Counted from the first letter of the stretch, positions 289 to 17,257 are shown. The stretch: 64,000 nucleotides of DNA from Vitreimonas sp. (GCA_035627515.1 DASPLQ010000012.1:1344517-1408516), one strand, 5' to 3'. Made by a program: numbers and translations. Notes: generated by a model not told the origin, from the sequence alone.

Positions 289-304
289 ATGCTTGATTAT
301 AAGC

Positions 305-422: not shown

Positions 423-508
423 GCCGAAGTGGCGAAATGGTAGACGCGCACGCTTCAGGAGCGTGTCCCCGCAAGGGGATGGAGGTTCGAGTCCTCTCTT
501 CGGCACCA
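423..508 (+). tRNA. tRNA-Leu(CAG), long variable arm, CCA encoded
   Basis: Acceptor gccgaag/cttcggc. Anticodon loop ttCAGga. T-arm ggttcgagtcc. Long variable arm. Confidence 0.85.
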
Positions 509-537
509 GCTAATGATATAATTTAAAGCCTAGTTAA

Positions 538-621
538 GCCCAGGTGGTGAAATGGTATACACGTACGCTTGAGGTGCGTATGCCGAAAGGCGTGGAGGTT
601 CAAGTCCTCTCCTGGGCACCA
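538..621 (+). tRNA. tRNA-Leu(GAG), CCA encoded
   Basis: Acceptor gcccagg/cctgggc. Anticodon loop ttGAGgt. T-arm ggttcaagtcc. Long variable arm. Confidence 0.85.
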
Positions 622-629
622 GATATAAG

Positions 630-657
630 GCGTCTCCTTGCCAAGGAGAAGGTCGCA
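630..657 (+). other. Orphan fragment identical to the anticodon arm and variable region of tRNA-Gly(GCC) at 2450-2522, lying just 5' of tRNA-Val
   Basis: gcgtctccttgccaaggagaaggtcgc is identical to the internal segment of the Gly tRNA at 2474-2500. Confidence 0.7.
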
Positions 658-663
658 GTCTAT

Positions 664-738
664 GGCCGCTTAGTCTCAGTTGGTTAGAGCGCTCGGTTTA
701 CATCCGAGAGGTCACAGGTTCGAGCCCTGTAGCGGCCA
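664..738 (+). tRNA. tRNA-Val(TAC)
   Basis: Acceptor ggccgct/agcggcc. Anticodon loop ttTACat. T-arm aggttcgagccct. Confidence 0.85.
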
Positions 739-775
739 CGTAAAGCATTTATTCTCACAATCGGTGGACACCACA

Positions 776-810
776 AAGAGGTCACCCCGCTCAAGCGGGG
801 TAGCGGCCAC
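776..810 (+). other. Pseudo copy of the tRNA-Val 3' end, with the T-arm replaced by a perfect 6-bp/4-nt hairpin (ccccgc tcaa gcgggg)
   Basis: ggtcac-ccccgctcaagcgggg-tagcggccac compared with the genuine ggtcac-aggttcgagccct-gtagcggccac 60 bp upstream. Confidence 0.6.
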
Positions 811-817
811 ACAACAT

Positions 818-1255
818 TTAATCAATCACAAAATCTGCGCTTACATCTACTTTGCCACTTTCATTTATCATTAAGCGACAATACCAGGCTTCGGGAGCTC
901 CAGGATGTCGAGTAATAAGTAAACTTTTTCTTCGCAGTCCATCATCAATGTGTCGTTCTTCGCATTTCACAGCATGAACGCATGATGACCAATTTGTCGG
1001 TCTGGCCGGATTGCAGGATTCAAAGCAATAACCACGAATTTGTGACAAAATCATTTTAGAATAGTCCTGATCTTGGAGTGAGCGGCAACGCGTTACAAAT
1101 GCTTGCGAACCAGGGGAAAAGCGTTCAAAAATTCCAAAATAGAGAGCAGGAAATATAAAGAGCGCAAAGCCCACAAAACCAACCAAAAGATAGGTTAGAA
1201 AAGCCTGGTAAGTGAAGTAGATCTTAGATGAGTGTGACATCATAACTCCGGCCAT
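818..1255 (-). CDS. Hypothetical protein with N-terminal transmembrane anchor
   Basis: ORF with a hydrophobic N-terminal segment. No recognisable motif. Confidence 0.4.
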   Translation of the reverse strand: MAGVMMSHSSKIYFTYQAFLTYLLVGFVGFALFIFPALYFGIFERFSPGSQAFVTRCRSLQDQDYSKMILSQIRGYCFESCNPARPTNWSSCVHAVKCEERHIDDGLRRKSLLITRHPGAPEAWYCRLMINESGKVDVSADFVID

Positions 1256-1722
1256 TCTTCAGGATGCTCAAAAATAGGTGGTGTTTCTTTATAAACTGGA
1301 AAGATTTCCTTGGGCGTACTACCAGGAGGTAATGCCCAATTAGTATGCGTTGTATTTTTAGAGTAATCAGAGTGATAGTAAAAGATTGGCCAGCTTAAGG
1401 ATTGGGCTGCCATCCTAAAGCCTGAATTATCGGGTAATGGCCGGTAATGCATCTTTGTACAAAAATTTAGGTACTTTCTAGAGCAAATGATTTCATTACT
1501 GATGAGCGTTAAATCAGCCGGATACGTACCTTTTTCAGCCTTATATATCTCCACTTGTTCAGCAGCCTCTTTAAACTGTCTATATAAATCAAAGTCTCTT
1601 TGTTCAGTATCGAAAATAAAGAGGCGTAAAAAGACATTGAGGACCAAATAACCCAGTAATAATGCCAACAATAAGCCAAAAGCCATTAGAACGCGAAATA
1701 GAAGCTTTATTGGTTTTTTCAT
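1240..1722 (-). CDS. Hypothetical protein with N-terminal transmembrane anchor
   Basis: ORF with N-terminal TM helix MKKPIKLLFRVLMAFGLLLALLLGYLVL. AT-rich. Confidence 0.45.
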   Translation of the reverse strand: MKKPIKLLFRVLMAFGLLLALLLGYLVLNVFLRLFIFDTEQRDFDLYRQFKEAAEQVEIYKAEKGTYPADLTLISNEIICSRKYLNFCTKMHYRPLPDNSGFRMAAQSLSWPIFYYHSDYSKNTTHTNWALPPGSTPKEIFPVYKETPPIFEHPEEWPEL

Positions 1723-1731
1723 AATAAAACA

Positions 1732-2217
1732 CTAGTCAAAAAATTCATGAACAACTTTGGTATAGACTATCTCACCCTGAAAACAAACTAAGTACATATA
1801 ATAGGAAAAATCTCCATGTGGCCCTGCCTTCCCGTCGGCAGAGTATTTCCAACAATTTCGATCATTACCTACGCCTATACCATCTGCCAAAGGTTTGCCC
1901 AGCAAGTCTTCAACTTGGCCTTTAGTCATGTTCTTTTCAACCTTTTCAAAGTTAGTAACAGTGAAGCCAGGAGCAAAAATCGTGTCAATTTCTGGATATG
2001 GATAAAAATGTTGCTCTGAAAACAGAAAAACATGAATAATAAAAGGAGCCACGATGAAAATAATTGCTATTTGTAAAGCGATCACACCAGCAATGAGAGA
2101 TACCAACTTAGAAAAAAGTGTTTTATCTTTTCGGAAAAAAAGTCCTGCTGTTAAACTAATAGCGGCACATACTCCAAACAGTAAGAGAAAAAACCGAGTA
2201 ATTAAGAACCACGACAT
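1732..2217 (-). CDS. Hypothetical membrane protein, possibly with a BamE/SmpA-OmlA-like C-terminal domain
   Basis: Two N-terminal TM helices. MTKGQVEDLLGKPL resembles the SmpA/OmlA motif. Weak. Confidence 0.4.
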   Translation of the reverse strand: MSWFLITRFFLLLFGVCAAISLTAGLFFRKDKTLFSKLVSLIAGVIALQIAIIFIVAPFIIHVFLFSEQHFYPYPEIDTIFAPGFTVTNFEKVEKNMTKGQVEDLLGKPLADGIGVGNDRNCWKYSADGKAGPHGDFSYYMYLVCFQGEIVYTKVVHEFFD

Positions 2218-2315
2218 GAAAAATTATAGCATTTTCATCTTAGGGGAGTTAAAATCTCCTCGCACAAATCAAGATATTTTGGTTATAATAGTGATTCGTT
2301 ATTGCAAAATAACAT

Positions 2316-2391
2316 GCCAAGCTAGCCAAGTTGGTCACGGCGCATGTCTGAAAAACATGAAATTCAGGTTCGATTCCTGAGCTTGGCACCA
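2316..2391 (+). tRNA. tRNA-Phe(GAA)
   Basis: Acceptor gccaagc/gcttggc. Anticodon loop ctGAAaa. T-arm caggttcgattcctg. CCA present. Confidence 0.85.
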
Positions 2392-2449
2392 GACATTGAG
2401 AAAAATGAGATGAACGGGTACAATTGACACTTGTTCAATTAACAGAATG

Positions 2450-2522
2450 CGAGAATAGCTCAGTTGGCTAGAGCGTCTCCTTGCCAAGGAGAAGGTCGCG
2501 GGTTCGAGTCCCGTTTCTCGCT
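2450..2522 (+). tRNA. tRNA-Gly(GCC)
   Basis: Acceptor gcgagaa/ttctcgc. Anticodon loop ttGCCaa. T-arm gcgggttcgagtcccgt. Confidence 0.85.
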
Positions 2523-2526
2523 CACT

Positions 2527-2835
2527 TTAATCATCCCCATACCAGCAACCAGCTTTTTTAAGCATTTCCTTAAGCTCTAAATCAAATTTTTCTGATTCAG
2601 TTAAAACATTGGTTTTCTCTAGTGAAAAAAGATCGTAAACACTGGCATCAAGATAGTGAGCAATTTTTAAAGCCGTTAAGACTGAAGGAACCACTAAACC
2701 TTTCTCAATGTCGTAAACATTTTGCCTACTAATACCAATATGAAATGCCAAAGTTAACTGAGAGACGCCGATAGATTTGCGAAATTTGGCCACATTATTG
2801 TAAAGTTTGACAGGGTGCAGTGAGGGGTTCTTCAT
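2527..2835 (-). CDS. XRE-family helix-turn-helix transcriptional regulator
   Basis: HTH signature SQLTLAFHIGISRQNVYDIEKG. 102 aa. Confidence 0.7.
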   Translation of the reverse strand: MKNPSLHPVKLYNNVAKFRKSIGVSQLTLAFHIGISRQNVYDIEKGLVVPSVLTALKIAHYLDASVYDLFSLEKTNVLTESEKFDLELKEMLKKAGCWYGDD

Positions 2836-2844
2836 GAGAGAAAC

Positions 2845-2894
2845 GTCATTTAAAAGTTACACTTTTTATTCAAACTGTAAACTTTAGATGACAG
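2845..2894. promoter_or_regulatory. Palindromic intergenic element, copy 1 (arms TGTCATYTAAARGTTTACA, ~13-bp AT spacer), 10 bp upstream of the XRE regulator start
   Basis: GTCATTTAAAAGTTACAC...CTGTAAACTTTAGATGACAG. Same architecture at 8803-8853 and 38757-38805. Confidence 0.6.
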
Positions 2895-2924
2895 ATTCTT
2901 CCAAGGATATACCTCCAACCTTTA

Positions 2925-3578
2925 CTAAACCGTAGTACTAACCAAATCACTCATTTTAGCTGCGATAGCTTCTTCAGCAATTTCCTCAGGTTTTATTTTG
3001 CACACTTCAAAAATCTGCTTTTCAATTTGGTATAAGTATTGAGAATATTGCCGCCGCTTCATCACATCTTCTTCCAGAGAATATTTATCACCATATCGCT
3101 CCTCTAAGTCATCTAACCGTTCTTGCAAAAGCACCACTCCAGTTGGCGCCACCCGCATATCAGCATAGGCACAGATTTTTTGAGCTAAATCAGAGCTTAA
3201 AAAGTTTTCCTCAGCTTTCAAGAAACCCACTGCATCAATTAACTCATAAACTCGCAGCTCCACCCCAATCTCATCAATAATTTTCATCGTTGCATCATGA
3301 TCATTGTGACCATACTTTGCCACAAACTCTTTCTGGATTTCTTGCCAATATTCCAACTCACCAGCCGGCACAAACTCGGGAAACTTCAATAAATCAAACT
3401 TCACGATGTTACCCATGTCATGTAGTAAACAAGCTAAAATCACATGGCGGCGATCATTATCAGAAAGGGGAGTAGTTAAGGTATCTACAATCACGGCGGC
3501 CACACCTGCTACCCGTAGCTGGTGCTGCTGCAAATTAGGCATCAACCGATACTGTTGGTAAAGCTGCGCAATCGTCAT
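2925..3578 (-). CDS. HD-domain phosphohydrolase
   Basis: Conserved H...HD motif (LLHDMGN). Confidence 0.7.
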   Translation of the reverse strand: MTIAQLYQQYRLMPNLQQHQLRVAGVAAVIVDTLTTPLSDNDRRHVILACLLHDMGNIVKFDLLKFPEFVPAGELEYWQEIQKEFVAKYGHNDHDATMKIIDEIGVELRVYELIDAVGFLKAEENFLSSDLAQKICAYADMRVAPTGVVLLQERLDDLEERYGDKYSLEEDVMKRRQYSQYLYQIEKQIFEVCKIKPEEIAEEAIAAKMSDLVSTTV

Positions 3579-3598
3579 GGGGCAAGTATAACAAACTC

Positions 3599-4318
3599 TT
3601 ACTTAAAAAAGGCGCCATACCGGATAGAGCGCGAAAACTTCCGGTAAAAAGCCTCTAAAATCACGTCTCGGGCTTCATTAACTTGGAAGTACTGGGTATT
3701 TATCGTCAAGTCATATGAGTTACATTTATCAATATCCTTGCGCAAATACTGCTTCACAAAGGACCGCCGTTCTTTCTCCACTTTGGCGATCACTTCTTTA
3801 GCTTGAGCTTCATTCAATCCCTCAAAATCCATGGCCCGCTTCACTCGCCGATCGTATGGAGCTGTGATATTAATGTGCAACCCTTTAGCAAACGGACAAA
3901 TAAAGTTTGCACCTCTACCTAGAATAACTACATGTCCTTGCAAAGCGTATGCCAGCATCACCTTCACTAACTCCGTCACATACGTTAAGTCATCAATGTA
4001 CTCAGGATTAAGAATCGAGTGGACAATGTCATCAATTTTGCTGCGGCTCTTTTCATCGATAGCTTTAATGGCTGCTTTACGTTGTTTAGTCGAGTTCGCA
4101 ATTTCTTCAATCAGTTGGTCATCAACAAAAGTAAAACCTAACTTGTCTGCCACTGCTTTGGCAATGGGTGCCCCACCACTACCGGGCTCACGAGCAATGG
4201 TAATAAAGGGTCGGACAAATGAAGATTCAGCATCAGCACTATATTGATTAAAGATGCGATCTTTGATGTTGAGGGTATTAATGATTTTATTAACCAGCGG
4301 GTAATAATGTAGGGACAT
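3599..4318 (-). CDS. Cytidylate kinase-like family P-loop protein
   Basis: ITIAREPGSGGAPIAKAVADKLGF is a Walker-A-like loop typical of the cytidylate-kinase-like family. TATAAT sits 9 nt upstream of the ATG. Confidence 0.6.
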   Translation of the reverse strand: MSLHYYPLVNKIINTLNIKDRIFNQYSADAESSFVRPFITIAREPGSGGAPIAKAVADKLGFTFVDDQLIEEIANSTKQRKAAIKAIDEKSRSKIDDIVHSILNPEYIDDLTYVTELVKVMLAYALQGHVVILGRGANFICPFAKGLHINITAPYDRRVKRAMDFEGLNEAQAKEVIAKVEKERRSFVKQYLRKDIDKCNSYDLTINTQYFQVNEARDVILEAFYRKFSRSIRYGAFFK

Positions 4319-4410
4319 ACTTAATTATATCTAAGACTCCAATGAGCAGAAATTATGTACCCCAGATGATGTTATAATGTCAGAGCCTGTTAAGAGGTAT
4401 GTAAGTTTTC

Positions 4411-4484
4411 GCGTCAGTAGCTCAGTTGGATAGAGCATCTGTCTTCGGAACAGAGGGTCGGGGGTTCGAATCCCTCCTGGCGCA
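4411..4484 (+). tRNA. tRNA-Arg(TCG)
   Basis: Acceptor gcgtcag/ctggcgc. Anticodon loop ctTCGga. T-arm ggttcgaatcc. Followed by a T-run and the hairpin cttcgccttggcgaag. Confidence 0.8.
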
Positions 4485-4581
4485 CTTTTTTTACTCCTGT
4501 ACTCCAAGCCTTTCTTCGCCTTGGCGAAGCTCGCTTTATTTTGTAAACTTTTACCTTGTTACTTTTACTTGAGGAAATTAT

Positions 4582-5202
4582 ATGTACGCTGATACTGTCT
4601 ATTTATTTGGTGATCAATTTGCTCCGGCTGCCGGGATGTTGGGTTATAAAGAAACCTTGCCCAATGGCACAAAAGTTGATCAGAAGCGCTTAGCGGAACT
4701 GGTCGTCATAGCGGCTTTAGTCGAAATGAGTGAACAAGGTTACATCAAGACCTATGTAAAAGATGGGGAATTTTTGTTTTTTAAAACCCAAACTGCAGTC
4801 GTGAGCTTAGAAAAAAAACCTGCCAAGTCTTTAGGTGTATTCGAACATGCTTTACTTAGTGTATTGGATAGTGCCCAAAAAGAACTGTCTATTAACGATT
4901 TACTTCATTACCTTTTGCAACGGGACAGTTATAACCCCTGGGGTGAAGTGACTAGATTCATTAATGAAAATCTCATCAACCGAGGCATTCTAGAAAAGAC
5001 TAAAGATAAACAAATATTATTTATTAAAACCTACAAAAATGTACTGAAAGGGGAAATTCCCCAAGAAGAACAACAGCGGTTAGAAAAAGTCAAAACGGCT
5101 TTAGAACACTTTAAAAATAACGATCCTGTGCTTTATAAAAAAGTTCTTGATGGCGTCAATAATGGGATTAGCTCCCGGGTAGTGCAATCAGATAATGACT
5201 AA
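4582..5202 (+). CDS. Hypothetical protein
   Basis: 206-aa ORF. No confident family call. Confidence 0.45.
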   Translation: MYADTVYLFGDQFAPAAGMLGYKETLPNGTKVDQKRLAELVVIAALVEMSEQGYIKTYVKDGEFLFFKTQTAVVSLEKKPAKSLGVFEHALLSVLDSAQKELSINDLLHYLLQRDSYNPWGEVTRFINENLINRGILEKTKDKQILFIKTYKNVLKGEIPQEEQQRLEKVKTALEHFKNNDPVLYKKVLDGVNNGISSRVVQSDND

Positions 5203-5216
5203 GAGTATACTGAGGT

Positions 5217-5807
5217 ATGTCAACCTCTCCCTCTCAACCTACTCAACCACAATCACCACGACGCTTATTTCGCGCCCTCGAAGCTAAATCTTTGCGCTCA
5301 CGGACCGTACCGACCCAAATTGCTGATTATTTAACGAGCAAAAGTAGCACCCCTACTTTTTTGTTTTTGAACACGCTGTTATTTGCGTTTTGGATAATTT
5401 GGAACTCAGGCCTTATTCCTCAACTCAAACCCATCGATCCGTATCCCTTTGGCTTTTTGACGATGGTGGTCTCACTAGAAGCAATTGCGTTATCCATTTT
5501 TGTGTTAATTTCTCAAAATCGGGCGGCTCAAATTGCCACCTTGCGTGATGAGCTCAACTTACGCGTCAATCTGATTGCTGAACAAGAAGTGACTAAAAGT
5601 TTACAAATTTTAGCTGAGATGCGGACTAAAATGGGCATTAAAACTCCTGATCCTGAGCTTGAGGAAATGTTGCAAGATATTAATGCCTCTGACCTTGAGC
5701 ACTCGATCGCGGCTCAGTTAGTGAGAGCGGACCAAACGGTCATTACCAAACTGACCAAAAAAGACGTTCCTAACCTAATTAACTCGCTCCTGAATGTGCG
5801 GCGGTAA
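5217..5807 (+). CDS. Hypothetical membrane protein (two TM helices; possibly DUF1003-like)
   Basis: Two hydrophobic helices (FLFLNTLLFAFWIIW; LTMVVSLEAIALSIFVLI) followed by a coiled C-terminal region. Confidence 0.45.
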   Translation: MSTSPSQPTQPQSPRRLFRALEAKSLRSRTVPTQIADYLTSKSSTPTFLFLNTLLFAFWIIWNSGLIPQLKPIDPYPFGFLTMVVSLEAIALSIFVLISQNRAAQIATLRDELNLRVNLIAEQEVTKSLQILAEMRTKMGIKTPDPELEEMLQDINASDLEHSIAAQLVRADQTVITKLTKKDVPNLINSLLNVRR

Positions 5808-5816
5808 ACTCCTAGC

Positions 5817-5847
5817 TTGACTTTGCCCTTACTGGAATGTTTATAGT
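5817..5847 (+). promoter_or_regulatory. Sigma70-like promoter with a 19-bp spacer (TTGACT-N19-TATAGT), the hallmark of MerR-regulated promoters; dyad TAGTACaattcGTACTA overlaps the -10 box and transcription start
   Basis: TTGACT at 5817-5822, TATAGT at 5842-5847, ATG at 5860, giving a near-leaderless mRNA. Confidence 0.55.
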
Positions 5848-5859
5848 ACAATTCGTACT

Positions 5860-6282
5860 ATGAAACACTTAACTGTCAGCCAACTAGGAAAAGCTATTGG
5901 TGTCACACCCAAAACCATTCGCTTTTATGAATCTGAAGGCTTAATCACGCCTACAAAGCGGGCCGAGAATGGTTATCGTTTGTATGATGAATCGCTGGTT
6001 GAGGAACTTCAGTTAATTAAACAAGCTCGAGATTTAGGTTTGCCCCTCAAAGAAATTAAAACCTTACTAGCAGGTTGCCAAGGTGAAAGTTGCGATCACA
6101 CTAAAAAATATGTGCAGGGTGAAATTGATGACTACTTGGTCAAACTGAGCGCCAAAATTGACCAACTTCTTAATTTGCAGGCAAAATTACAACAACTCCG
6201 GACCCAGCTGGACAGCAATCCTCAATTTTGTGAGGGGGGAAAGTATTGTTGTAATATTTTGCATCAATTATCAAAAGTCTAG
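5860..6282 (+). CDS. MerR-family transcriptional regulator with Cys-rich C-terminus (probable metal sensor)
   Basis: N-terminal MerR HTH (LTVSQLGKAIGVTPKTIRFYESEGLITP...GYRLYDE). C-terminal Cys cluster (GCQGESCDH...KYCCN). Confidence 0.8.
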   Translation: MKHLTVSQLGKAIGVTPKTIRFYESEGLITPTKRAENGYRLYDESLVEELQLIKQARDLGLPLKEIKTLLAGCQGESCDHTKKYVQGEIDDYLVKLSAKIDQLLNLQAKLQQLRTQLDSNPQFCEGGKYCCNILHQLSKV

Positions 6283-6298
6283 AAAGGAGGTGAGAAAT

Positions 6299-6343
6299 AT
6301 GAATTCCAACGAAACGTGTTGCGGCGGCGGTTGCCAATGCTAA
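6299..6343 (+). CDS. 14-aa Cys-rich micro-protein MNSNETCCGGGCQC (putative metal-binding peptide)
   Basis: ATG at 6299 preceded by a strong SD (aaaggaggtga, 7-nt spacing). Five Cys in 14 residues. Followed by hairpin terminator ccatcatgtgcgcgccatgatgg at 6371-6393. Co-directional and contiguous with the merR-like gene. Confidence 0.55.
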   Translation: MNSNETCCGGGCQC

Positions 6344-6370
6344 GTATTAAACATTAATACACCAACACAA

Positions 6371-6400
6371 CCATCATGTGCGCGCCATGATGGTTTATCT
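6371..6400 (+). terminator. Putative intrinsic terminator after the merR/micro-ORF unit
   Basis: 8-bp perfect stem ccatcatg/catgatgg followed by tttatct. Confidence 0.45.
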
Positions 6401-6452
6401 CCCTCTACTTGATCGCATAAGTATCTGATATATAATTTAGTTATAGGATTAT

Positions 6453-7454
6453 ATGTCGGAAATTGTTCAAAAAGGTTTTTCACTAGCTCCAGGTGTGGAC
6501 ACACAAACTTTCCCTGTACGGGGACCTTTGGTTGAAATAACAGACCAAGGTTTCAAAGTTGTTCAAGGCCTGGGCAGCATACCTTTAGAAACGTTAGCAA
6601 AATACTACGATTTATATCACAATCGTCTTGACACACCCAGGGTAGAAATGTCAGTAGATGAAGAAGCACTCCAAAAATGGGTTGATCTTTTAATTGATGA
6701 CGCTTTTTCTGCAGTTGGTATAAATCTTGTTAGAAAGTTGGGATTATACCCTGATCCTAATGGTAAAAACATTTTAACTCCTTCAATTATTCTTACTCAC
6801 CTTACTAATCAACCAAATAGATATGTCCAGCTTAATGCTATTACTCCTGAAGGAAAAATCAGGATTAGAGCTATAAAAGTTGTTGATCTCTTTCAAGGAG
6901 ACTTTGCAGCTTGCCAATACACCATATTTACAGGTTTAAGAATGGCAGCGTGGGAAAAATTAACTGAAGAAGGCAATGATCCTCGATTTCAGGATTCTAT
7001 CTTTCAATCTTTGATGAGTAAGTCATTAAATACCGAAAGGATTCTCCAGCACGTTCATAACTCACCGCAACTTTTTGAGTGGGCATATCCAAATGACGGA
7101 CCTCAGAATTTAATCCAATCGGTGGAAGCATTGATTTACAACGCTGCAATTCGAGAGACATACTTGCCACTTATTCAAATCGCCAATAAAATGCTAACGA
7201 ACTTAATTTTATTTAACCACCTGGCAGATGAGAACCTCATCTTAGCCGGTAAGCCAACCTATAATGATGACGCAACTTATAATTTTAGTGATCATGAATT
7301 CCAATCAATAATTAACAGTCTCAAAAATAAAGCCCTCTTCCTACTTTACTTCAGAATGGACCTCATGGACCCTGCATCACATCGTTATTTAGTTGAGTAT
7401 CTTTATTATCGTTTTGGTGAAGAAGCCCCAGGAAAGAAATGGGAAACAAACTAA
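6453..7454 (+). CDS. Hypothetical protein (333 aa)
   Basis: Long ORF. No recognisable motif. Confidence 0.45.
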   Translation: MSEIVQKGFSLAPGVDTQTFPVRGPLVEITDQGFKVVQGLGSIPLETLAKYYDLYHNRLDTPRVEMSVDEEALQKWVDLLIDDAFSAVGINLVRKLGLYPDPNGKNILTPSIILTHLTNQPNRYVQLNAITPEGKIRIRAIKVVDLFQGDFAACQYTIFTGLRMAAWEKLTEEGNDPRFQDSIFQSLMSKSLNTERILQHVHNSPQLFEWAYPNDGPQNLIQSVEALIYNAAIRETYLPLIQIANKMLTNLILFNHLADENLILAGKPTYNDDATYNFSDHEFQSIINSLKNKALFLLYFRMDLMDPASHRYLVEYLYYRFGEEAPGKKWETN

Positions 7455-7461
7455 ATTAAGT

Positions 7462-7896
7462 ATGGAAAGAAGTCATAACCTCCCAATAGATGAACTCCAA
7501 CGAAGAGCTGGCAGTGCTAACCGTGGATTTAATGACACAATTATCAAGCCACAAGCTTTTAGAATTGGTTTGAGTCAATCTAATCCAGAGTTCCTACCAC
7601 CGAAAAAAAAAGTCATTATTTTTCCAAGACAACAGAACTTTGCACAAATTAATACACAGACTGCGACTGAAACACTCCTGCTTCCAGCCACAACCTCACG
7701 CATCAAATCACGACGAGATCGTACTGCTTCACCTGTTTCCGAGCTTAATGACGTGGTAGAAGCGATTAATACACGCGTCCAAAAAGAAAACCAACCGCTA
7801 GCCGACGATGTAAGTGCTGAAACCTTAATGGTCCAAGCCCTACAAAAAATCTTATCGAGCAAATCACAAGCCAAAGCTCCAACTAAACTTGTTTAG
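7462..7896 (+). CDS. Hypothetical protein (start trimmed to the first non-overlapping ATG)
   Basis: ORF 7393-7896 overlaps the previous gene. ATG at 7462 (MERSHNLPIDEL...) removes the overlap. Ser/Thr/Pro-rich low complexity. Confidence 0.35.
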   Translation: MERSHNLPIDELQRRAGSANRGFNDTIIKPQAFRIGLSQSNPEFLPPKKKVIIFPRQQNFAQINTQTATETLLLPATTSRIKSRRDRTASPVSELNDVVEAINTRVQKENQPLADDVSAETLMVQALQKILSSKSQAKAPTKLV

Positions 7897-8758
7897 CTAA
7901 AAACTCCAACACTGCCTTTTGAAACCCCTCGGGATCATGCCAAAAGATGTCATGACCAGTCGGAAACTCCTGATACTCTTTGGTCGTTTCTAAAGCTCGG
8001 TAAATATCACTAGCATCTTCATGATCAACTGTTTGATCTTTTTCAGCTGAAAATAAAAGCACCGGCACTTTAATATTACCCACCACAGCCATAGGAGTGT
8101 TACCTGGGTAGCTTCGGCCAAACTCTAAGTAACCCGCTGTGGTCATAAATGGGGTAAATATGCTGGCTGGAAAACCTTCTTTATCGATTCTGAAGGCAAA
8201 GAGGGACTGCAAGTTTTTATACGGCACAGAGGCAATAATAAAATCACCCTTCTGGGTTTTACCGACAGTTACTAGTGAAGTGGTAGCGCCCATGGAGATA
8301 CCCAAGTAGCCAATCTTCTTATCTTTATTTTCAGAGAGGGAAGAGAGGTGATCATAAACAGCTTCTAAATCTTGCCATTCTTTGACACCCATATAAATTT
8401 TTTCTCCCTCACTCTCACCAAAACTCCGCATATCAACTAATACTGTCGAGTAACCAGCTTTTCTCAGGTAGGGGACATGCCCCAACATGCTGGTCTTACC
8501 ACCGGGGTTGCTGTACCCATGAACTAAAATGACTACTGCTTTGGGATTTTTGACTGGAAAAGACCAGTACGCAATCTGTTGGCCATTAGCATTGGTTACA
8601 AATTGGGTTTCGGCCGTCAAACCATCAGGAAACGTATATTCCGAAGCCTCGGCGTGGAAATTGAGTTGCGTATGGAGGCGATACCAGACATAGAGAAAGG
8701 CAATTACTATCCCTGTTAAGAATAGTAATATTAAAAAGAGAAGAATTTTCATAGCCAA
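7883..8758 (-). CDS. Secreted/membrane-anchored alpha/beta hydrolase (dienelactone-hydrolase/esterase-like)
   Basis: N-terminal hydrophobic signal/anchor. GxSxG nucleophile elbow (GISMGA). HGY motif. Confidence 0.7.
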   Translation of the reverse strand: MAMKILLFLILLFLTGIVIAFLYVWYRLHTQLNFHAEASEYTFPDGLTAETQFVTNANGQQIAYWSFPVKNPKAVVILVHGYSNPGGKTSMLGHVPYLRKAGYSTVLVDMRSFGESEGEKIYMGVKEWQDLEAVYDHLSSLSENKDKKIGYLGISMGATTSLVTVGKTQKGDFIIASVPYKNLQSLFAFRIDKEGFPASIFTPFMTTAGYLEFGRSYPGNTPMAVVGNIKVPVLLFSAEKDQTVDHEDASDIYRALETTKEYQEFPTGHDIFWHDPEGFQKAVLEFLAKQV

Positions 8759-8802
8759 AAACTTAATTTAGATTGAGACATCAGTATCATTATACAGAAA
8801 TC

Positions 8803-8853
8803 TGTCATTTAAAGTTTACATTTTTAATTTAATATGTAACATCTAGATGACAG
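8803..8853. promoter_or_regulatory. Palindromic intergenic element, copy 2, in the divergent promoter region between the alpha/beta hydrolase and GNAT genes
   Basis: TGTCATTTAAAGTTTACA-N14-TGTAACATCTAGATGACAG. Confidence 0.6.
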
Positions 8854-8881
8854 TTTTAGAAAAAGGCTATAATACTCCCAC

Positions 8882-9370
8882 ATGTTTGAAATTAAAGAAT
8901 TAACAGATTTAGACACTGCTTATCGCATCGGGCAGTTCTTAACAGGCCCCTATGCTTTCGAACATAACTGGGCACCGAATGAAAAAGCGGTGGTGGAGCA
9001 AGCACCTATTGATAGCTTAACCGGCACAAACCATCAGTATTAGTATATCGAACACGAGGGTGAGATTATTGCGGCGATTGGAGTCCGCGAAAATAAATAT
9101 GGTAGTGGCGGCTATGAAATGGACACTGATTACATGGCGGTTCATAAAGAGTATCGCCAGCAAGGCTTAGCTACCTTAATGCTGCAAAAGGTTGAAGACT
9201 ATGTCAAAGCGAAAGGTGGACGATATCTCCACATCCTCTCCTGCGACATCGATTATCACATTCCCGCTCGAGCCTTTTACGAAAAACATGGCTTCCAAAA
9301 AGTGGGGTATATGCCTAATTACTACGTGCCTGGAGAAGGTCGCATTGATTATTACAAGGAACTGTTATGA
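8882..9370 (+). pseudogene. GNAT-family N-acetyltransferase interrupted by an in-frame TAG at 9041-9043
   Basis: ATG at 8882 has TATAAT 7 nt upstream. The reading frame is continuous with ORF 9119-9370 except for a single TAG (..LTGTNHQY*YIEHEGEIIAAIGV..). The downstream part carries the GNAT motif-A region (QQGLATLMLQKVEDYVKAKG). Confidence 0.6.
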
Positions 9371-9438
9371 AAACACTGTTATTACTTTTTTTGGTTATCA
9401 TTCCGGCTATTAAAGTGTGGTGGAATAAGAAGTCTTAA

Positions 9439-9783
9439 TTACCTTACCATCGTACCCGGTTTCACCTCAGCTCCAACTTCAACTAAAGTGGGAACGTTCG
9501 CTTCATCTACTGCCATCAACATCATGCCTTGGCTGACACCTTGGCCCATTTTACGCTCAGCTAAATTAGCAATAAAAATGAATGACTTACCGATGAGATC
9601 CTCAGGTGTATAAAATTGTTTAATACCAGACATTATAGTTTTTTGACCAATTTCCTCACCAAAATCGACCTGATACTCAATCAGCTTCTCACTCCACTCT
9701 GGTACCTGTGCAGCGATGATTTTACCAACTCGTAAATCTAGTTTTTCAAAATCGGGGTAGTGGATGATATCTTTCATAGGCAA
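9439..9783 (-). CDS. tRNA-binding protein (CsaA/Trbp111-like OB-fold domain)
   Basis: DLRVGKIIAAQVPE...KLIEYQVDFGEE...GIKQFYTPEDLIGK is typical of the Myf/EMAP tRNA-binding domain. Confidence 0.7.
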   Translation of the reverse strand: MPMKDIIHYPDFEKLDLRVGKIIAAQVPEWSEKLIEYQVDFGEEIGQKTIMSGIKQFYTPEDLIGKSFIFIANLAERKMGQGVSQGMMLMAVDEANVPTLVEVGAEVKPGTMVR

Positions 9784-9827
9784 AAATTATACCAGATGTT
9801 TGAGCTTTGCGAGGTTATAATGGCTGC

Positions 9828-10412
9828 ATGACTCAACACGCTAAATGGAAAATAATTAATCAGCAGGACGTCTCGCCGAGCCCTTGGTTTCCAATTGTAA
9901 AAGATGAAGTGGAGTTGCCGAATGGGAAACGAGTTGAGTATTTTCGGTCACAGTTAGCGAATGTAGCGATGGTAATAGCTATTACCAAACAAAAAGAAGT
10001 GGTATTTGTTCGCCAATACAAACATGGGATAGGAGAGGTTTGTATTGAACTGCCAGCTGGACGGATTGAGGTTGGCCAAACTCCCCGCGCAGCTGCTCTT
10101 CACGAGTTACAGCAAGAAACAGGGGTTAGTATCGCTGAAACTCAATTAATTGAAGTAGTTGAATTGTGGACAGAACCCAGTAAAAGTCAGGTCAGAGTGT
10201 ATGGGTTTTTGGTGACAGAAGTTGAAATTACCGACGCACAAAATTTAGAAGAAACCGAAGACATTGAAGTCATAAAAGTGCCTTTGCACGAGCTTTCCAA
10301 CTTCCTACTCACTGAAGTACACGCCTCCGACACTATGGCATTATTACTTCTTGCCCAGCAAAAGTGGCCAGAGCTATTTGATGACCTAAAAGCCAAACAC
10401 TTAATCAAATAA
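9828..10412 (+). CDS. NUDIX hydrolase (ADP-ribose pyrophosphatase-like)
   Basis: Nudix box GX5EX7REUXEEXGU (PAGRIEVGQTPRAAALHELQQETGV). Track start 9807 is a TTG; ATG at 9828 has TATAAT 7 nt upstream. Confidence 0.75.
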   Translation: MTQHAKWKIINQQDVSPSPWFPIVKDEVELPNGKRVEYFRSQLANVAMVIAITKQKEVVFVRQYKHGIGEVCIELPAGRIEVGQTPRAAALHELQQETGVSIAETQLIEVVELWTEPSKSQVRVYGFLVTEVEITDAQNLEETEDIEVIKVPLHELSNFLLTEVHASDTMALLLLAQQKWPELFDDLKAKHLIK

Positions 10413-12137
10413 CTCTTTATACGTCCCTTTTTTGATTAAGCGACCTTTTTCAAAGTGGTAAATATAATCGGTGTTCTTGAGTGTTGAGGTGCGGTGAGCA
10501 ATGGCGATAATCGTCACCCCTTTGAGTTCTTTTTCGATGGCCGCATGAATTTTTTCTTCAGTGGCTGTATCAAGATGCGATGTGGCTTCATCTAAGATCA
10601 AGATTTGGCTTTGTTTACAGATAGCCCGAGCCAAAGCAATTCGCTGGCGCTCACCTCCAGAAACTCGATACCCACGCTCACCAATTAACGTCTCTAAACC
10701 CTCAGGAAGCTTGCTAATTAATTTAGCTAGTTGGGCAATTTTAATGGCTTTGAGCAAAATTTCCTCAGGGATGTTTTTCATCGAGGTGATATTTTCCCGG
10801 AGACTAAAATTAAACATCTCTGATTCTTGCGGCACTACGGTCACGTGGGTAGTGAGTTCATCGTGAGAAATGTCACTAAGATTGCGCTTACCAATCAAAA
10901 TGTGACCTCGGGTAGGAGTATATAAACCTAAAAGTAACTTAGCCAATGTCGATTTGCCGCTTCCAGAACTTCCTACAATACCCACCTGATCACCGCGCTT
11001 AATTATGAGATTAATATCGCTTAAGGTAGCTTCGTGTTGGTACTTAAAATCCAAGTTTTTAAGCTCGATGCTTTGCCACTCAGCTGGGAAAGCTAGGGTA
11101 CCTTGGCGAGCGTCAAGGTCAGTCCAAAACAGTGGCATCATTCTACTCACCATCAATCTCATTCTGACTAAGCGCTCAAAGTATCCTGTCATGTCATTTA
11201 TGGCTTTACGAATATCATTAAAGTAACTGTAAAAAATAAACACCGAACCTAAGGACACTCTGCCAGCTAAAACATCACTCCCAAGCATATACAAAAAAAT
11301 GGTCGATACTACGGCAGTATCAACTTGAAAAAACTTCCACTTATAAATATTGAGTGCGGAGATCTCTTGGTTGTAAGCTCTTAACAGAGCTTCAGCTGAG
11401 GCGACTTTCCCCTGCAGTGATTTGCCCATTCCTAAGCTTTTAATTGATAAAATGTTTGACAACCCTTCATAGTATTTCCCTGAAGCATTCTCGCGAGCCA
11501 TATTGAATTCTTCATATTTATTATTAATGCGGTTATAAAAGAATTTCTCAATCAGAAAAAAGACCATCGCATAGACTCCGATCAATACAAAATACTTAAG
11601 ATCAAAAATAAAAAAGACTACCGTCACTCCGATCAGCGTGGATAGCAAATCGTAGAGTTTCTCTTGTAATAAAGCTAAAAAATCGCTCACCCCATTCGCC
11701 CCAGCCTCAATCCGCTGCACTTTATTCCCGGTATTTTCTTTCTCGTGCCAAGTCAAAGAAAAATCCAGCAATTTTTGAAACCCAGAAACTTTAATGCGGT
11801 ACACAATATCCAGTGTCAAGATTTCCATCTGATTTTTGGCTGATAAGCGAATGATGCTGATCACCCCCCAACTGACGCCAAATAAGCCCACCCATAAGTA
11901 AAAAGGTTGTAGAGACATGCCCGGACGATAAACAGTCAAAAAATCAACCATTCGTCCCAAAATAAATGGCGGCAACAAGGGATAGAAAAAAACACAGAAC
12001 AATACTATGTTCCAAAAAATGAATCGGTTTCTGATTGGTTGGGCAAAAAACCAAATCGAGCGTAAAAGATGCCACCAGGAAAAAGTACTTTTTTCTCCAG
12101 CCGTTTCTGCTAACTTCTCAAATTTCTGTCGCTTCAT
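10401..12137 (-). CDS. ABC transporter, fused permease/ATP-binding protein (exporter type)
   Basis: Six N-terminal TM helices. Walker A GSSGSGKST, signature LSGGERQRIALARA, Walker B ILILDEAT. Start set at MKRQKF... (rc ATG 12135-12137) with TATAAT 8 nt upstream. Confidence 0.8.
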   Translation of the reverse strand: MKRQKFEKLAETAGEKSTFSWWHLLRSIWFFAQPIRNRFIFWNIVLFCVFFYPLLPPFILGRMVDFLTVYRPGMSLQPFYLWVGLFGVSWGVISIIRLSAKNQMEILTLDIVYRIKVSGFQKLLDFSLTWHEKENTGNKVQRIEAGANGVSDFLALLQEKLYDLLSTLIGVTVVFFIFDLKYFVLIGVYAMVFFLIEKFFYNRINNKYEEFNMARENASGKYYEGLSNILSIKSLGMGKSLQGKVASAEALLRAYNQEISALNIYKWKFFQVDTAVVSTIFLYMLGSDVLAGRVSLGSVFIFYSYFNDIRKAINDMTGYFERLVRMRLMVSRMMPLFWTDLDARQGTLAFPAEWQSIELKNLDFKYQHEATLSDINLIIKRGDQVGIVGSSGSGKSTLAKLLLGLYTPTRGHILIGKRNLSDISHDELTTHVTVVPQESEMFNFSLRENITSMKNIPEEILLKAIKIAQLAKLISKLPEGLETLIGERGYRVSGGERQRIALARAICKQSQILILDEATSHLDTATEEKIHAAIEKELKGVTIIAIAHRTSTLKNTDYIYHFEKGRLIKKGTYKELFD

Positions 12138-12195
12138 AGCAGTGATTATACAGGCCAATTAACATTCTTCAGTTCAAATGAAAAACCTTCGATAG

Positions 12196-12768
12196 CTACC
12201 TAAGTACTTCTTCTAGCAACTCAGGGAATTCATTAGTGTTCATTTGGAAAAATAAGAAGTGTTGTTTATTTTCCAATCTCACCACACGCGGTTTAAGGGC
12301 TTGATTGTATAAATCAAAAGCTTTCATCATGTGAGGTAAATCGTTAGAAATAAAAATCACTATCTCATTGGCTAAATGAGGAACCTCTCTGGGCAACTCA
12401 AAGTCATATAAATCTTTTCTGCTATCATCGTCAGTTTCCGGCACACGGGCTGGAGCTACTAAAATTAATTTATGGATTTTTCTACCGGTGTCTAATAACC
12501 ACCGCACAATAAAAGCCCCTCCACAGCTATGCCCAACCACCACCGTTTTTTCAGTCACAGGGTATTTCTCAAACTCTTTTTTCCACTCCACATATTTGGG
12601 GTTCCAGGAAACCGGCATATCTAACGCCGTAGCATCTAAACCCTTTTCTTGGAGCTTATCTGCTAACCAATTCATCCACCGTTTCTCTTTCGGCATTAAC
12701 ATCGCCTCACTAGGAGGACAACCGTGAAGAACATAGTATTTGTCGGGGATGGTTTTTGGGAAGTTCAT
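12196..12768 (-). CDS. Alpha/beta-fold serine hydrolase, YdeN/RBBP9-like
   Basis: VVVGHSCGG nucleophile motif. ~190 aa, matching the YdeN family size. Start trimmed to MNFPK with an AGGA 9 nt upstream. Confidence 0.6.
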   Translation of the reverse strand: MNFPKTIPDKYYVLHGCPPSEAMLMPKEKRWMNWLADKLQEKGLDATALDMPVSWNPKYVEWKKEFEKYPVTEKTVVVGHSCGGAFIVRWLLDTGRKIHKLILVAPARVPETDDDSRKDLYDFELPREVPHLANEIVIFISNDLPHMMKAFDLYNQALKPRVVRLENKQHFLFFQMNTNEFPELLEEVLR

Positions 12769-12778
12769 AATTGAAATC

Positions 12779-13258
12779 CTAGTCGTGATTAATAGTTCCA
12801 CCTATAGCTCTGTGAAAAAAAACCACTTTGCCTTGATAAAGTATTTCTTCATAGCCTGAAAAGTTAGTAATATCGCCTTCTTGTCGGTAGCGGTATTCCC
12901 AGTTACCGGCTTTGTAGTTTTGAGGACCTCTCAGAGATCGAAATGTATCATCGTCTTGAGACAAAGCAGTTTTGAGAAAACTAAATGTATCATGAGCCAG
13001 CTGCTCATTTCCTTCAGTCATGCCTCCACAGTATGAGTTGGTCCAAACAATTTTTCCTTGAAACCTAACCACTTCTTGCCCCGCTGATTTTGTATGGCCA
13101 GTATAACTATCAAGATAGTCCCAATCTCCCTGCTTAAAATCAAACTCAATAAAATCTCTGCGCTCACTCGTTTTTAATGGTGGTTTACCACTCGCATATG
13201 TTGATTTTCCAGCCAGGTCAACAAAATCAAATAACTGAGAGGTGAAGTTGGTGTTCAT
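12779..13258 (-). CDS. Hypothetical protein
   Basis: 159-aa ORF. No recognisable motif. Confidence 0.4.
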   Translation of the reverse strand: MNTNFTSQLFDFVDLAGKSTYASGKPPLKTSERRDFIEFDFKQGDWDYLDSYTGHTKSAGQEVVRFQGKIVWTNSYCGGMTEGNEQLAHDTFSFLKTALSQDDDTFRSLRGPQNYKAGNWEYRYRQEGDITNFSGYEEILYQGKVVFFHRAIGGTINHD

Positions 13259-13296
13259 AAAGTGAGTTTAACACAGATGAAGTGATTGGAGAGAAT

Positions 13297-13644
13297 TTAT
13301 TTGTTCTGAAACCGGATGAAGTAAAACTCGCTTACATCATCAGACTTGTTTTCTATTTCGTGCTCAGTATCTGCAGGAAAAATAAACCGATCTCCAGATT
13401 GATAAACTTCTTCTTTACCAAAGGCATCTCTTATTACTCCTTCACCTTTAATAACAACACAAATCTCAACAATGTTAGCGTGTTTGTGCATTGTCCATTT
13501 TTCTGAAGCAGGCAGATAGCCGTAGGTGAAGGCCTCAAAATAAATAGATAAGGTCTCATCTTTTGATACTAAAAGTTTTCGAGAACCGGTCGCGTGTGGA
13601 GTTTCTTCTATTGGAATGTCTTGAATGTTTTTTTTGGAGAACAT
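13297..13644 (-). CDS. Cupin-domain protein
   Basis: Cupin motifs (G.RFIFPADTEHEIEN; HKHANIVEICVVIKGEG). Confidence 0.6.
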   Translation of the reverse strand: MFSKKNIQDIPIEETPHATGSRKLLVSKDETLSIYFEAFTYGYLPASEKWTMHKHANIVEICVVIKGEGVIRDAFGKEEVYQSGDRFIFPADTEHEIENKSDDVSEFYFIRFQNK

Positions 13645-13707
13645 GAGCTCATTTTAACAGCACGTTACAGTTAAATGAAAGTCTGATTGCGATATATTTA
13701 TATCTTG

Positions 13708-13781
13708 TGAGTCGGGTGGGACTCGAACCCACGACATTCTGCTTAAGAGGCAGACGCTCTAACCGACTGAGCTACCGACCC
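13708..13781 (-). tRNA. tRNA-Lys(CTT)
   Basis: Reverse-complement reads gggtcggtagctcagtcggttagagcgtctgcctCTTaagcagaatgtcgtgggttcgagtcccacccgactca. Acceptor gggtcgg/ccgactc (one GU). Confidence 0.85.
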
Positions 13782-13805
13782 TCACATTCATAACTTTTTA
13801 TTAAC

Positions 13806-13870
13806 GAGCATTCTGCTTAAGAGTCCGTCAGCTGACGGATCTAACCGACTGACCCGCCAGCCGGCGGGCT
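13806..13870 (-). other. tRNA-Lys-derived pseudo-element: 5' half of the adjacent tRNA-Lys, with two arms replaced by perfect 6-bp/4-nt hairpins (tccgtc agct gacgga; cccgcc ggct ggcggg); lacks a T-arm
   Basis: Shares attctgcttaagag, tctaaccgactga and ctcacattc with the tRNA-Lys 24 bp away. Confidence 0.6.
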
Positions 13871-13948
13871 CACATTCCGTAAGACTGATTATTTTAGCAC
13901 AAACTTGAGTAGAAATTGGGAGAAATTAAGGTGTTACAATCATTAGAG

Positions 13949-14476
13949 ATGCAAGAGATTACTTTAGAGGTCAATCTAAAAACTATCCCCCCCGTGATTA
14001 AACGTCGTCGCCAAGTATTAATTGTCCTGAAAAATGCTGAAGGTAATTATATTTTGGGTCATAAAAATCATTACCCACCGGGGGTATCAAGATTTGTGGG
14101 TGGGGGAATGGAAGAAGGGGAAGAGCCATTGCATGCCGCAGTCCGCGAACTTCATGAAGAAACAGGCATTTTGGCCGATGAAAACCACTTACGGCCACTC
14201 AGAAAGGTGGTAGTAGTAGCTACCACTCCTGACCAGCTACAAACCCACTTTGAAGTGTATTTATTTGCCTACCAACTCAACGATGAAACGCTTAAAGCCA
14301 GCGATGATTTAGATAACGTCGTGGAGTTGACGCCGGATTTAACCACTAAATTAATCGATACCTTTGATAACTTAAACGCTGACATTCACCCAGCTCTTAA
14401 CTTTTCTTGGCAAGATTATGGCAAAGTATATGGCCACATTCATCAGCTGGGCTTTGAGTTGACGCAAAAAAATTAA
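13949..14476 (+). CDS. NUDIX hydrolase
   Basis: Nudix box GGGMEEGEEPLHAAVRELHEETGI. ATG at 13949 has TACAAT 8 nt upstream; the track start at 13916 is a TTG. Confidence 0.7.
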   Translation: MQEITLEVNLKTIPPVIKRRRQVLIVLKNAEGNYILGHKNHYPPGVSRFVGGGMEEGEEPLHAAVRELHEETGILADENHLRPLRKVVVVATTPDQLQTHFEVYLFAYQLNDETLKASDDLDNVVELTPDLTTKLIDTFDNLNADIHPALNFSWQDYGKVYGHIHQLGFELTQKN

Positions 14477-14549
14477 CTTTTTATTAATTTTCCAGATGTG
14501 CACTCAGCGCTCATTGCTGTAGAGCTTTGTTTCAGTCTACAATCAACTC

Positions 14550-17250: not shown

Positions 17251-17257
17251 TTGATTA

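Follow-up and report, generated by a model that had tools for sequence, protein, structure and literature searches.

Three partial copies of tRNA genes, two of them broken by GC-rich palindromes, lie in a 64,000-nucleotide stretch of DNA (DASPLQ010000012.1, positions 1344517–1408516; "the window" below means this whole stretch) whose host genome is that of a Microgenomates-type patescibacterium, a member of the candidate phyla radiation (CPR) with a tiny genome. In the copies of tRNA-Val and tRNA-Lys, stretches of 8–15 nucleotides that held strands of tRNA stems are now GC-rich DNA palindromes of 16–18 nucleotides. We regard the pieces as young scars at the DNA level, private to one lineage, in a hyper-plastic tRNA cluster; they are most likely inert or secondarily used scars rather than new RNA genes. 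Our preferred reading, to which we give a probability of about 0.42, is that the Lys mosaic is a relic or non-autonomous derivative, without an open reading frame (ORF), of a tRNA cassette of the GIY-YIG type, that the Val copy and a patch of tRNA-Gly are related scars of duplication and repair at the same hotspot, and that the palindrome in the Val copy now serves as terminator of a convergent operon. The pieces, their parts, and their parent genes are as follows (positions counted from the first letter of the window).

13804–13877, minus strand: partial 5′ copy of tRNA-Lys (alignment z = 15; identical in the Logan assembly)
13853–13868: palindrome H1, CCCGCC-GGCT-GGCGGG (tRNA sense), in place of tRNA nucleotides 2–11
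13824–13839: palindrome H2, TCCGTCAGCTGACGGA, a perfect 16-nt palindrome, in place of tRNA nucleotides 24–31
13790–13803, minus strand: AT-rich linker from the Lys copy to a second leader, without an ORF (the cassettes of relatives carry the nuclease ORF here)
13891–13899, minus strand: probable extended −10 promoter element TGCTAAAAT, read by eye, upstream of the Lys copy
13707–13781, minus strand: tRNA-Lys(CTT), parent of the upstream partial copy (74.8 bits)
776–810, plus strand: partial 3′ copy of tRNA-Val (local alignment z = 5.8)
784–801: 18-nt GC palindrome ACCCCGCT-CA-AGCGGGGT, a near-palindrome whose arms are really 8 bp; RNA hairpin predicted at 785–800
815–831, plus strand: copy of the 3′ trailer of tRNA-Val (parent 746–760), ~17 nt (p ~ 0.01 versus shuffles)
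664–739, plus strand: tRNA-Val(TAC), parent of the downstream partial copy (ARAGORN; Rfam 59.6 bits)
630–656, plus strand: 27-nt exact copy of nucleotides ~24–50 of tRNA-Gly(GCC) (27/27 versus 2473–2499; blastn E 3e-10)
2449–2523, plus strand: tRNA-Gly(GCC), source of the 27-nt piece

An initial annotation of this DNA had reported three partial tRNA copies beside the genuine genes, with GC hairpins, and this picture is confirmed with small corrections of coordinates. The Gly copy is indeed exact over 27 nucleotides and ends at 656, not 657. The hairpin that was said to replace the T-arm of the Val copy is present (CCCCGC-TCAA-GCGGGG at 785–800), but its arms extend to 8 bp within the 18-nt near-palindrome. 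Likewise, the Lys copy does have two arms swapped for 16-nt palindromes, but it runs further than the 13806–13870 originally assigned to it.

Structure of the tRNA-Derived Pieces

The Lys copy contains three blocks that match its parent exactly: 9 nt made up of an 8-nt leader and G1 (13869–13877), 13 nt of the D-loop (13840–13852), and 15 nt (13809–13823) that span the anticodon loop, the 3′ strand of its stem, and the start of the variable loop and are followed by CTCGT. H1 and H2 took the place of the 5′ strand of the acceptor stem, that of the anticodon stem, and part of each strand of the D-stem. H1 and H2 agree at 11 of 16 positions and differ by transitions at the other five; four of these make up two symmetric pairs (positions 1/16 and 5/12), and the fifth (position 7) perfects the palindrome. 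Given this similarity and the symmetry of the differences, H1 and H2 look like two copies of one element. Only 14–19 nt separate the Lys copy from the second leader. A simple promoter scan did not list the element at 13891–13899; a similar TAAAAT box stands upstream of tRNA-Lys in two related contigs (L004 and L027). With this putative −10 element, the Lys copy would be part of the 5′ leader of the tRNA-Lys transcript. The locus as a whole (13707–13877) has, apart from the ORF, the layout of the cassettes described below, namely a promoter-proximal 5′ copy, GC palindromes in the region of the D-arm, and then the same tRNA intact.

The Val copy consists of two blocks, AGAGGTCAC and GTAGCGGCCAC, on either side of the hairpin at 785–800. 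It keeps a variable-loop block (777–785) and the 3′ block of the acceptor (800–810), with most of the T-arm replaced and the T-loop letters TC.AGC retained. The copy begins 36 nt past tRNA-Val, and the cargo genes lie beyond it, not between the repeats. The copied trailer of tRNA-Val shows that the origin of the Val copy was a local tandem duplication (period ~71 nt); an extension of the copy into the anticodon arm was not significant (p ~ 0.1). Indeed, both the Val and the Lys pieces include a trailer or a leader and are thus local tandem partial duplications.

On the minus strand the Val palindrome forms 8 pairs, is followed by the tail ACCTCTTTGT, lies 16 nt past the stop codon of the ORF at 818–1255, and was a match in our terminator scan. 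Judged by the features of an intrinsic terminator (a GC hairpin and a T-run after the end of a gene), it is a consensus match in this direction only; the Val palindrome on the plus strand and both Lys palindromes lack these features. In a relative (contig L028), a canonical bidirectional terminator occupies the position that matches the Val copy, which favors a terminator role. As judged from its sequence and position, the Val palindrome probably now acts as terminator for a convergent three-gene operon.

The Gly piece comprises the anticodon stem-loop, the variable loop, and the first bases of the T-stem, with a core, TCTCCTTGCCAAGGAGA, that forms a DNA palindrome of 17 nt. It occupies the 42-nt spacer between tRNA-Leu(GAG) (538–621) and tRNA-Val(TAC) (664–739), 1.8 kb from its source gene. 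We also noticed a hairpin, CTTCGCC-TT-GGCGAAG, with a T-run at 4508–4534, 23 nt past tRNA-Arg, which is likely to be a terminator. It was considered as a relative of the Gly 27-mer and rejected, the 70% identity being within chance by a rough binomial estimate.

GIY-YIG Cassettes in Related Genomes

Self-BLAST of every fetched locus from related genomes was used to find further partial tRNA copies. In two contigs (L017 and L008) a 5′ copy of tRNA-Leu(GAG), with a GC palindrome inserted past the D-arm, is followed by a small ORF and then by the intact tRNA; the ORFs were recognized as GIY-YIG by Pfam (E 3e-13 and 4e-14). Homologues of the L017 protein had the same architecture in every contig examined. 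In seven contigs, a GIY-YIG ORF of 81–104 codons has a 5′ tRNA copy interrupted by a palindrome on one side and an intact tRNA-Leu or tRNA-Val on the other, and an eighth contig carries related cassettes:

L008, 590–1040: cassette at tRNA-Leu(GAG)
L017, 790–1300: cassette at tRNA-Leu(GAG)
L024, 60–495: cassette at tRNA-Leu(GAG)
L023, 1395–1845: cassette at tRNA-Leu(TAG)
L025, 1360–1890: cassette at tRNA-Leu(TAG)
L031, 1–480: cassette at tRNA-Val(GAC)
L030, 130–668: cassette at tRNA-Val(GAC)
L032, 590–1003: tandem Leu cassettes, on a short contig without a complete tRNA

The order of parts is promoter and leader, tRNA 5′ part broken by at least one GC palindrome, GIY-YIG ORF, and intact tRNA; L025 and L032 have tandem or 1.5 cassettes. 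The palindrome of the Leu cassettes, CTGCCTGCGCAGGCAG, is a perfect 16-mer that lies between tRNA nucleotides 26 and 27; four contigs have it in identical form, and their proteins are each 60%–64% identical to the L017 query protein. The constancy of this palindrome in GIY-YIG cassettes that have diverged makes it, at least there, a heritable element and not a fresh error. L017 and L022, which are close relatives (90.5% identity downstream), provide an occupied and an empty site. The promoter that L017 shares with L022 is located upstream of the partial copy in L017, and the patched copy is therefore the 5′ untranslated region (UTR) of the nuclease gene. We infer from these sequences that the cassettes are mobile, that the palindrome is inherited with them, and that the target is cleaved by an 81-amino-acid nuclease. 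The nuclease consists of a catalytic domain only, with no DNA-binding domain, and NCBIfam has no name for these small GIY-YIG proteins. A literature search found no description of palindrome-patched tRNA copies or of GIY-YIG tRNA cassettes.

The Val cassette (L031 and L030) bears the closest likeness to the Lys mosaic of the window. Its leader is duplicated before both copies, as in the Lys copy, and several GC hairpins alternate with blocks of the tRNA 5′ part. It includes a 36-nt nested palindrome whose outer arms, CCCGCC/GGCGGG, are those of H1, a match of only 6 bp of pure GC.

Patched copies without a nuclease layout were also seen. On the minus strand of L022 (2023–2259), three tandem 79-nt units, each a tRNA 3′ part, lie downstream of tRNA-Arg(TCG). 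Their anticodon arm is replaced by the 15-nt TCCCGC-TTA-GCGGGA, which in the third unit reads CCCCGC...GCGGGG, a two-sided change of the stem. These copies score 24.3–24.6 bits on the tRNA model (gathering threshold, 29 bits). In the same contig, GC hairpins interrupt a copy of the Gly 3′ end that makes up the trailer of a tRNA-Gly (6097–6160), and L020 has partial copies of tRNA-Leu(CAG) and tRNA-Phe. In addition, the tRNA-Gly leaders of two unrelated contigs (L005 456–470 and L020 1671–1684) share a conserved GC hairpin, GCGGGC..GCCCGC, with CGAAGCTTT after it; the tRNA-Gly downstream has the anticodon TCC in L005 and GCC in L020, and the L020 hairpin is the last of three tandem repeat units.

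Rarity and Nature of the Palindromes

Perfect hairpins with 6-bp stems, 4-nt loops, and at least five GC pairs occur twice in the 64 kb, both times in tRNA copies, as compared with 0.34 expected; when at least four GC pairs are required, three of the six hairpins lie inside the tRNA copies, which total 107 nt (P ~ 1e-7). The palindromes are 15–18 nt long, and their arms, of 6–9 bp, are 62%–94% GC in a genome that is 43% GC. At their centers, eight of 14 symmetric pairs are self-complementary versus 3.5 expected (P = 0.01), AGCT and GCGC fully so and the others half. Self-complementary centers fit DNA palindromes, whether formed by inverted duplication or serving as a symmetric protein site, better than they fit RNA tetraloops.

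Motif scans of the 64 kb, out of a genome of 1.41 Mb, found none of these palindromes outside the tRNA copies, and the dispersal expected of repeats of the REP/RAYT or IS200/IS605-derived kind was not seen. IMG/VR was scanned with the palindrome junctions of the Val and Lys copies and with the palindrome of the Leu cassettes, with 0 matches in each case. Nor was any arm of H1, H2, or the Val palindrome parental in the alignments of parent and copy, as one arm should be after a template switch; the closest resemblance was that of TCCGTCAGC to GCGTCTGC. Because no arm resembles the parental sequence that was replaced, a simple origin by template switching from local sequence is unsupported. Meanwhile, stems of the form CCCCGC...GCGGGG with T-runs are ordinary terminators in relatives (L025 1283–1295 and L020 5945–5958).

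A Proposed Origin for the Mosaics

On our preferred reading, a cassette would insert into a tRNA gene and supply a replacement for its 5′ part, such that an intact tRNA is regenerated downstream. The displaced 5′ part would stay downstream of the promoter and form the 5′ UTR of the nuclease ORF. The palindromes would break this displaced copy, so that it could neither pair with the true tRNA in the precursor nor recombine with the downstream copy nor be cut again. The Lys locus of the window, which has the layout of a cassette and no ORF, would be a decayed or non-autonomous cassette, and the Val copy and the 27-nt Gly patch would be by-products of the same traffic of insertion, rearrangement, and repair, the Val palindrome having been put to secondary use as terminator of the convergent three-gene operon.

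Folding predictions bear on one part of this proposal. The palindromes are predicted to fold as local hairpins; alternatively, H1 pairs with H2 in a 19-bp imperfect hairpin with D-loop sequence at its tip. The z-scores are modest (−2.1 for the Lys leader hairpin). The predicted probability of the true tRNA-Lys cloverleaf is 0.52 without the copy, 3e-4 with a hypothetical unpatched copy, and 0.04 with the real sequence; the drop with the unpatched copy arises because a spare acceptor strand competes. On this model, destroying the complementary strands in the spare Lys copy would plausibly be advantageous. Other possible roles would be to break homology against recombination between the repeats or to destroy the nuclease target in the spare copy.

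Several findings weigh against this account. Random 16-nt patches rescue the predicted folding of tRNA-Lys as well as the real palindromes do, so the palindromic form of the real patches is not accounted for by folding. No GIY-YIG ORF or remnant was found in the 64-kb window (phmmer; tblastn gave noise only, best E ~ 0.1), and the Leu-cassette palindrome had 0 matches there at up to 3 mismatches. The likeness of H1 to the Val cassette resides in the 6-bp GC arms only and may be coincidence. We saw no ORF-bearing cassette for tRNA-Lys and none for downstream copies of the Val/Arg type. The cassette model alone does not account for the 27-nt Gly patch, and the mobility and cleavage that it invokes would have to be the work of an 81-amino-acid protein with no DNA-binding domain.

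A bolder variant, which we think rather unlikely, is that the 15–18-nt palindromes act in cis as the sites of a hitherto undescribed kind of mobile cassette, one that targets CPR tRNA genes by means of a minimal GIY-YIG nuclease, regenerates the target tRNA, and keeps the palindrome-broken piece as 5′ UTR. The Lys mosaic, and perhaps the Val mosaic, would then be non-autonomous elements, akin to miniature inverted-repeat transposable elements, that are still mobilized or recognized in trans. If the cassette reading is true, it reveals a new route by which selfish nuclease genes enter essential RNA genes without an intron, and it explains odd "mosaic" tRNA fragments that annotation pipelines ignore.

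The tRNA Cluster and Its Lineage

Using a lineage-specific tRNA-Phe sequence, we recovered 15 contigs of uncultured Patescibacteria (Roizmanbacteria, Woesebacteria, or Pacebacteria). In ~15 contigs and a metagenome relative (L006), the order Lys(−), Arg(−), cytidylate-kinase-like gene(+), Leu-CAG, Leu-GAG, Val, Phe is conserved, with Gly-GCC at one of two alternative places, between the two Leu genes or after Phe. Positions 1–20000 of the window were compared with L006, L009, L011, L015, L019, L021, L022, L027, and L028. Several spacers of the cluster hold unrelated cargo ORFs that differ by genome (GNAT, CutA1-like, NUDIX, and orphans), and the cluster therefore behaves as an insertion hotspot. 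CPR bacteria, with tiny genomes regarded as streamlined, have retained this conserved cluster as a hotspot of insertion and rearrangement, and some relatives carry small GIY-YIG nuclease cassettes in it. The version in the window is further rearranged: relative to the cytidylate-kinase-like gene the tRNA array is inverted, Val and Phe are separated by three orphan ORFs, and Arg and Lys are separated by 9 kb of cargo. Eight tRNA genes were found in the window by ARAGORN and Rfam, the three parents listed above and the following:

423–508: tRNA-Leu(CAG)
538–621: tRNA-Leu(GAG)
2316–2391: tRNA-Phe
4411–4485: tRNA-Arg(TCG)
17367–17455, minus strand: tRNA-Leu(TAG)

The nearest relatives found are 75%–77% identical to the window in the cytidylate-kinase-like protein, and all three tRNA pieces are missing from them. 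L027 keeps the neighborhood of tRNA-Lys and the NUDIX gene and lacks the Lys copy; in L021, the contig whose tRNA-Val is most like that of the window, the spacers are short and plain. L028 shares with the window the layout of Val, convergent ORFs, Phe, and Gly, and has its terminator in place of the Val copy; the window's three cargo ORFs next to the Val copy are not related to the three that L028 has there. The pieces are, by their absence from these relatives, private to the lineage of the window, and the 100% identity of their tRNA blocks to the parent genes indicates that they are young. The Logan assembly of run SRR7003767 is identical base for base at all three loci, which shows that no single assembler produced the mosaics as an artefact; the same run may have fed the original assembly. 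A search of 5.8 billion proteins with the product of the ORF at 818–1255 returned no homologue except itself, and the ORF at 6453–7454 had no match when used as a query against the genome contigs.

Finally, we note three further features of this region. A 75-nt inverted repeat, 92% complementary, is present at 364–438 and 17440–17514; its arms consist of the upstream or promoter region and the first 16 nt of tRNA-Leu(CAG) and tRNA-Leu(TAG), and it encloses a 17-kb segment that holds all three studied loci. The 16,903-nt Logan contig ends at ~592, inside tRNA-Leu(GAG), and, as reckoned from its length, at ~17,494, inside the second arm of the repeat. Possible readings are an invertible segment or a tract of gene conversion in the shared upstream region. 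A palindromic 53-nt sequence (GTCATTTAAA...TTTAGATGAC) occurs twice at ~80% identity (2845–2897 and 8799–8856), directly upstream of an Xre-type helix-turn-helix gene (2527–2835, minus strand) in one case and of an alpha/beta-hydrolase gene (7883–8758, minus strand) in the other, and looks like a shared operator or promoter region. An 83-codon ORF at 9119–9370, in the cargo-rich stretch between Arg and Lys, matches the C-terminal half only of GNAT acetyltransferases and is probably a truncated gene.

Alternative Explanations

The main rival to a mobile element is error in replication and repair. Stalled forks or breaks in a highly transcribed tRNA cluster, followed by microhomology-mediated template switching and fold-back synthesis, would yield tandem partial duplications, the 27-nt Gly patch, and palindromes alike. 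Leader and trailer lie within the copies, the Gly 27-mer resembles a templated insertion, the centers of the palindromes are self-complementary as in inverted duplications, and the unblemished identity of the blocks makes the events young. Template switching creates and maintains perfect hairpins, as one study reports (PMC8794818), and it would explain, with no selection, both the symmetric differences between H1 and H2 and the U-A to C-G change in L022. We nonetheless consider this explanation somewhat unlikely: no palindrome arm matches the replaced parental sequence or sequence nearby, so that the simple signature of a template switch is missing, the arms are far richer in GC (62%–94%) than the genome (43%), and one palindrome is unchanged across diverged GIY-YIG cassettes. 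Alternatively, the pieces might be decaying tandem duplicates in which hairpins evolved in place as selected RNA elements, such as terminators or stabilizing and insulating hairpins in tRNA leaders and trailers. The minus-strand terminator match of the Val hairpin is in keeping with this idea, as are the terminators with CCCCGC...GCGGGG stems and T-runs in L025 and L020, the terminator at the homologous place in L028, the compensatory stem change in copy 3 of L022, and the GC hairpin conserved in the tRNA-Gly leaders of L005 and L020. Yet the flanking blocks have zero substitutions and each patch would need at least eight changes, which makes stepwise evolution unlikely; moreover, the Lys hairpins lie in a discarded leader and neither has a T-run, the palindromic loop centers are unneeded for selection on RNA, and the pieces are missing from the nearest relatives. 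We judge evolution in place to be decidedly unlikely.

The initial annotation had also proposed tRNA-like decoys or processing signals, and had named absence from relatives as grounds against its own proposal. Such absence is what we observe among the relatives available (75%–77% identity in the conserved protein). The wider idea of functional tRNA-derived RNAs (decoys, signals for processing by RNase P or Z, or small RNAs) draws on the location of the fragments within tRNA transcription units, on the 19-bp imperfect hairpin of the Lys leader with D-loop sequence at its tip (z = −2.1), and on the intact anticodon stem-loop of the Gly piece. But the Rfam tRNA model (RF00005) had no match on 622–663, 740–830, or 13782–13895 even at E ≤ 10 (searches of 261 and 231 nt), and the three pieces are not tRNA-like RNAs. 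Strands of the acceptor, D, and anticodon stems have been removed; no minihelix of acceptor and T-arm is left on which RNase P or Z could act, the Lys copy has lost its anticodon stem, and the pieces are unconserved in relatives, with modest fold z-scores. A functional RNA is thus very unlikely. Of the earlier proposals, remnants of tRNA-targeting elements come closest to our reading, the matching elements of relatives being small GIY-YIG nuclease cassettes. The form of that proposal which invokes attachment-site (att) duplications by integrase-type integrative elements or prophages is, however, largely refuted, and we hold it to be highly improbable. Partial tRNA copies by tRNA genes are the classic att signature, and cargo genes adjoin the Val copy; but Pfam scans revealed no integrase family among 28 ORFs of the window, including all large ORFs between 818 and 18841, and there is no element between the repeats. 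The Val copy starts 36 nt past the gene, the cargo lies beyond both repeats, and the identity of the copy to the parent is broken internally instead of forming an uninterrupted 3′ repeat; the Lys copy is a 5′ half that lies upstream of its gene and includes the local leader; and the junction sequences are missing from IMG/VR.

Comparison with Known Systems

The usual interpretation of a partial tRNA copy next to a tRNA gene is an att scar left by an integrase; here the evidence points elsewhere. As in islands and prophages of the integrase type, the window has partial tRNA copies by intact, functional tRNAs with cargo nearby. In contrast to att duplications, it has no integrase, its copies are 5′ halves or internally patched and include the local leader or trailer, and palindromes replace strands of the stems. 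The tyrT locus of Escherichia coli offers a second comparison, for part of tRNA-Tyr, its 3′ end, recurs in the RtT tandem repeats downstream of that gene. Likewise, the Val copy and the tRNA-Arg triplet of L022 are partial 3′ tRNA copies downstream of their parent. RtT repeats, however, are not known to show palindromic replacement of arms, and the Rfam RtT model had no match in the window. The AT-rich mitochondrial genomes of fungi contain mobile GC-rich palindromic clusters, including double-hairpin elements. Likened by description, these too are short GC-rich palindromes in an AT-rich reduced genome, near tRNA and endonuclease genes; but they are dispersed and present in high copy, whereas the window has three palindromes in 64 kb, all inside tRNA copies.

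Template-switch (quasipalindrome) mutations, as reported in two studies (PMC8794818, PMC5453318), resemble the window in that many bases are replaced in one step and perfect inverted repeats result, symmetric changes needing no selection. They differ in that the expected ancestral arm or nearby template was not found for our palindromes. Finally, SegB is a free-standing GIY-YIG homing endonuclease that sits in the tRNA gene cluster of phage T4 (PMC2330249). SegB is unlike the cassettes in having no flanking duplicated tRNA part interrupted by a palindrome and no regeneration of its target, and the CPR cassette proteins are unlike SegB in being only 81–104 amino acids long and consisting of the catalytic domain only, the window itself having no nuclease gene. 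Nevertheless, SegB is the closest precedent, for its gene is a small GIY-YIG gene placed among tRNA genes, in the same kind of location as the cassettes of the relatives, and the inheritance of segB is linked to the sequence of tRNA genes.

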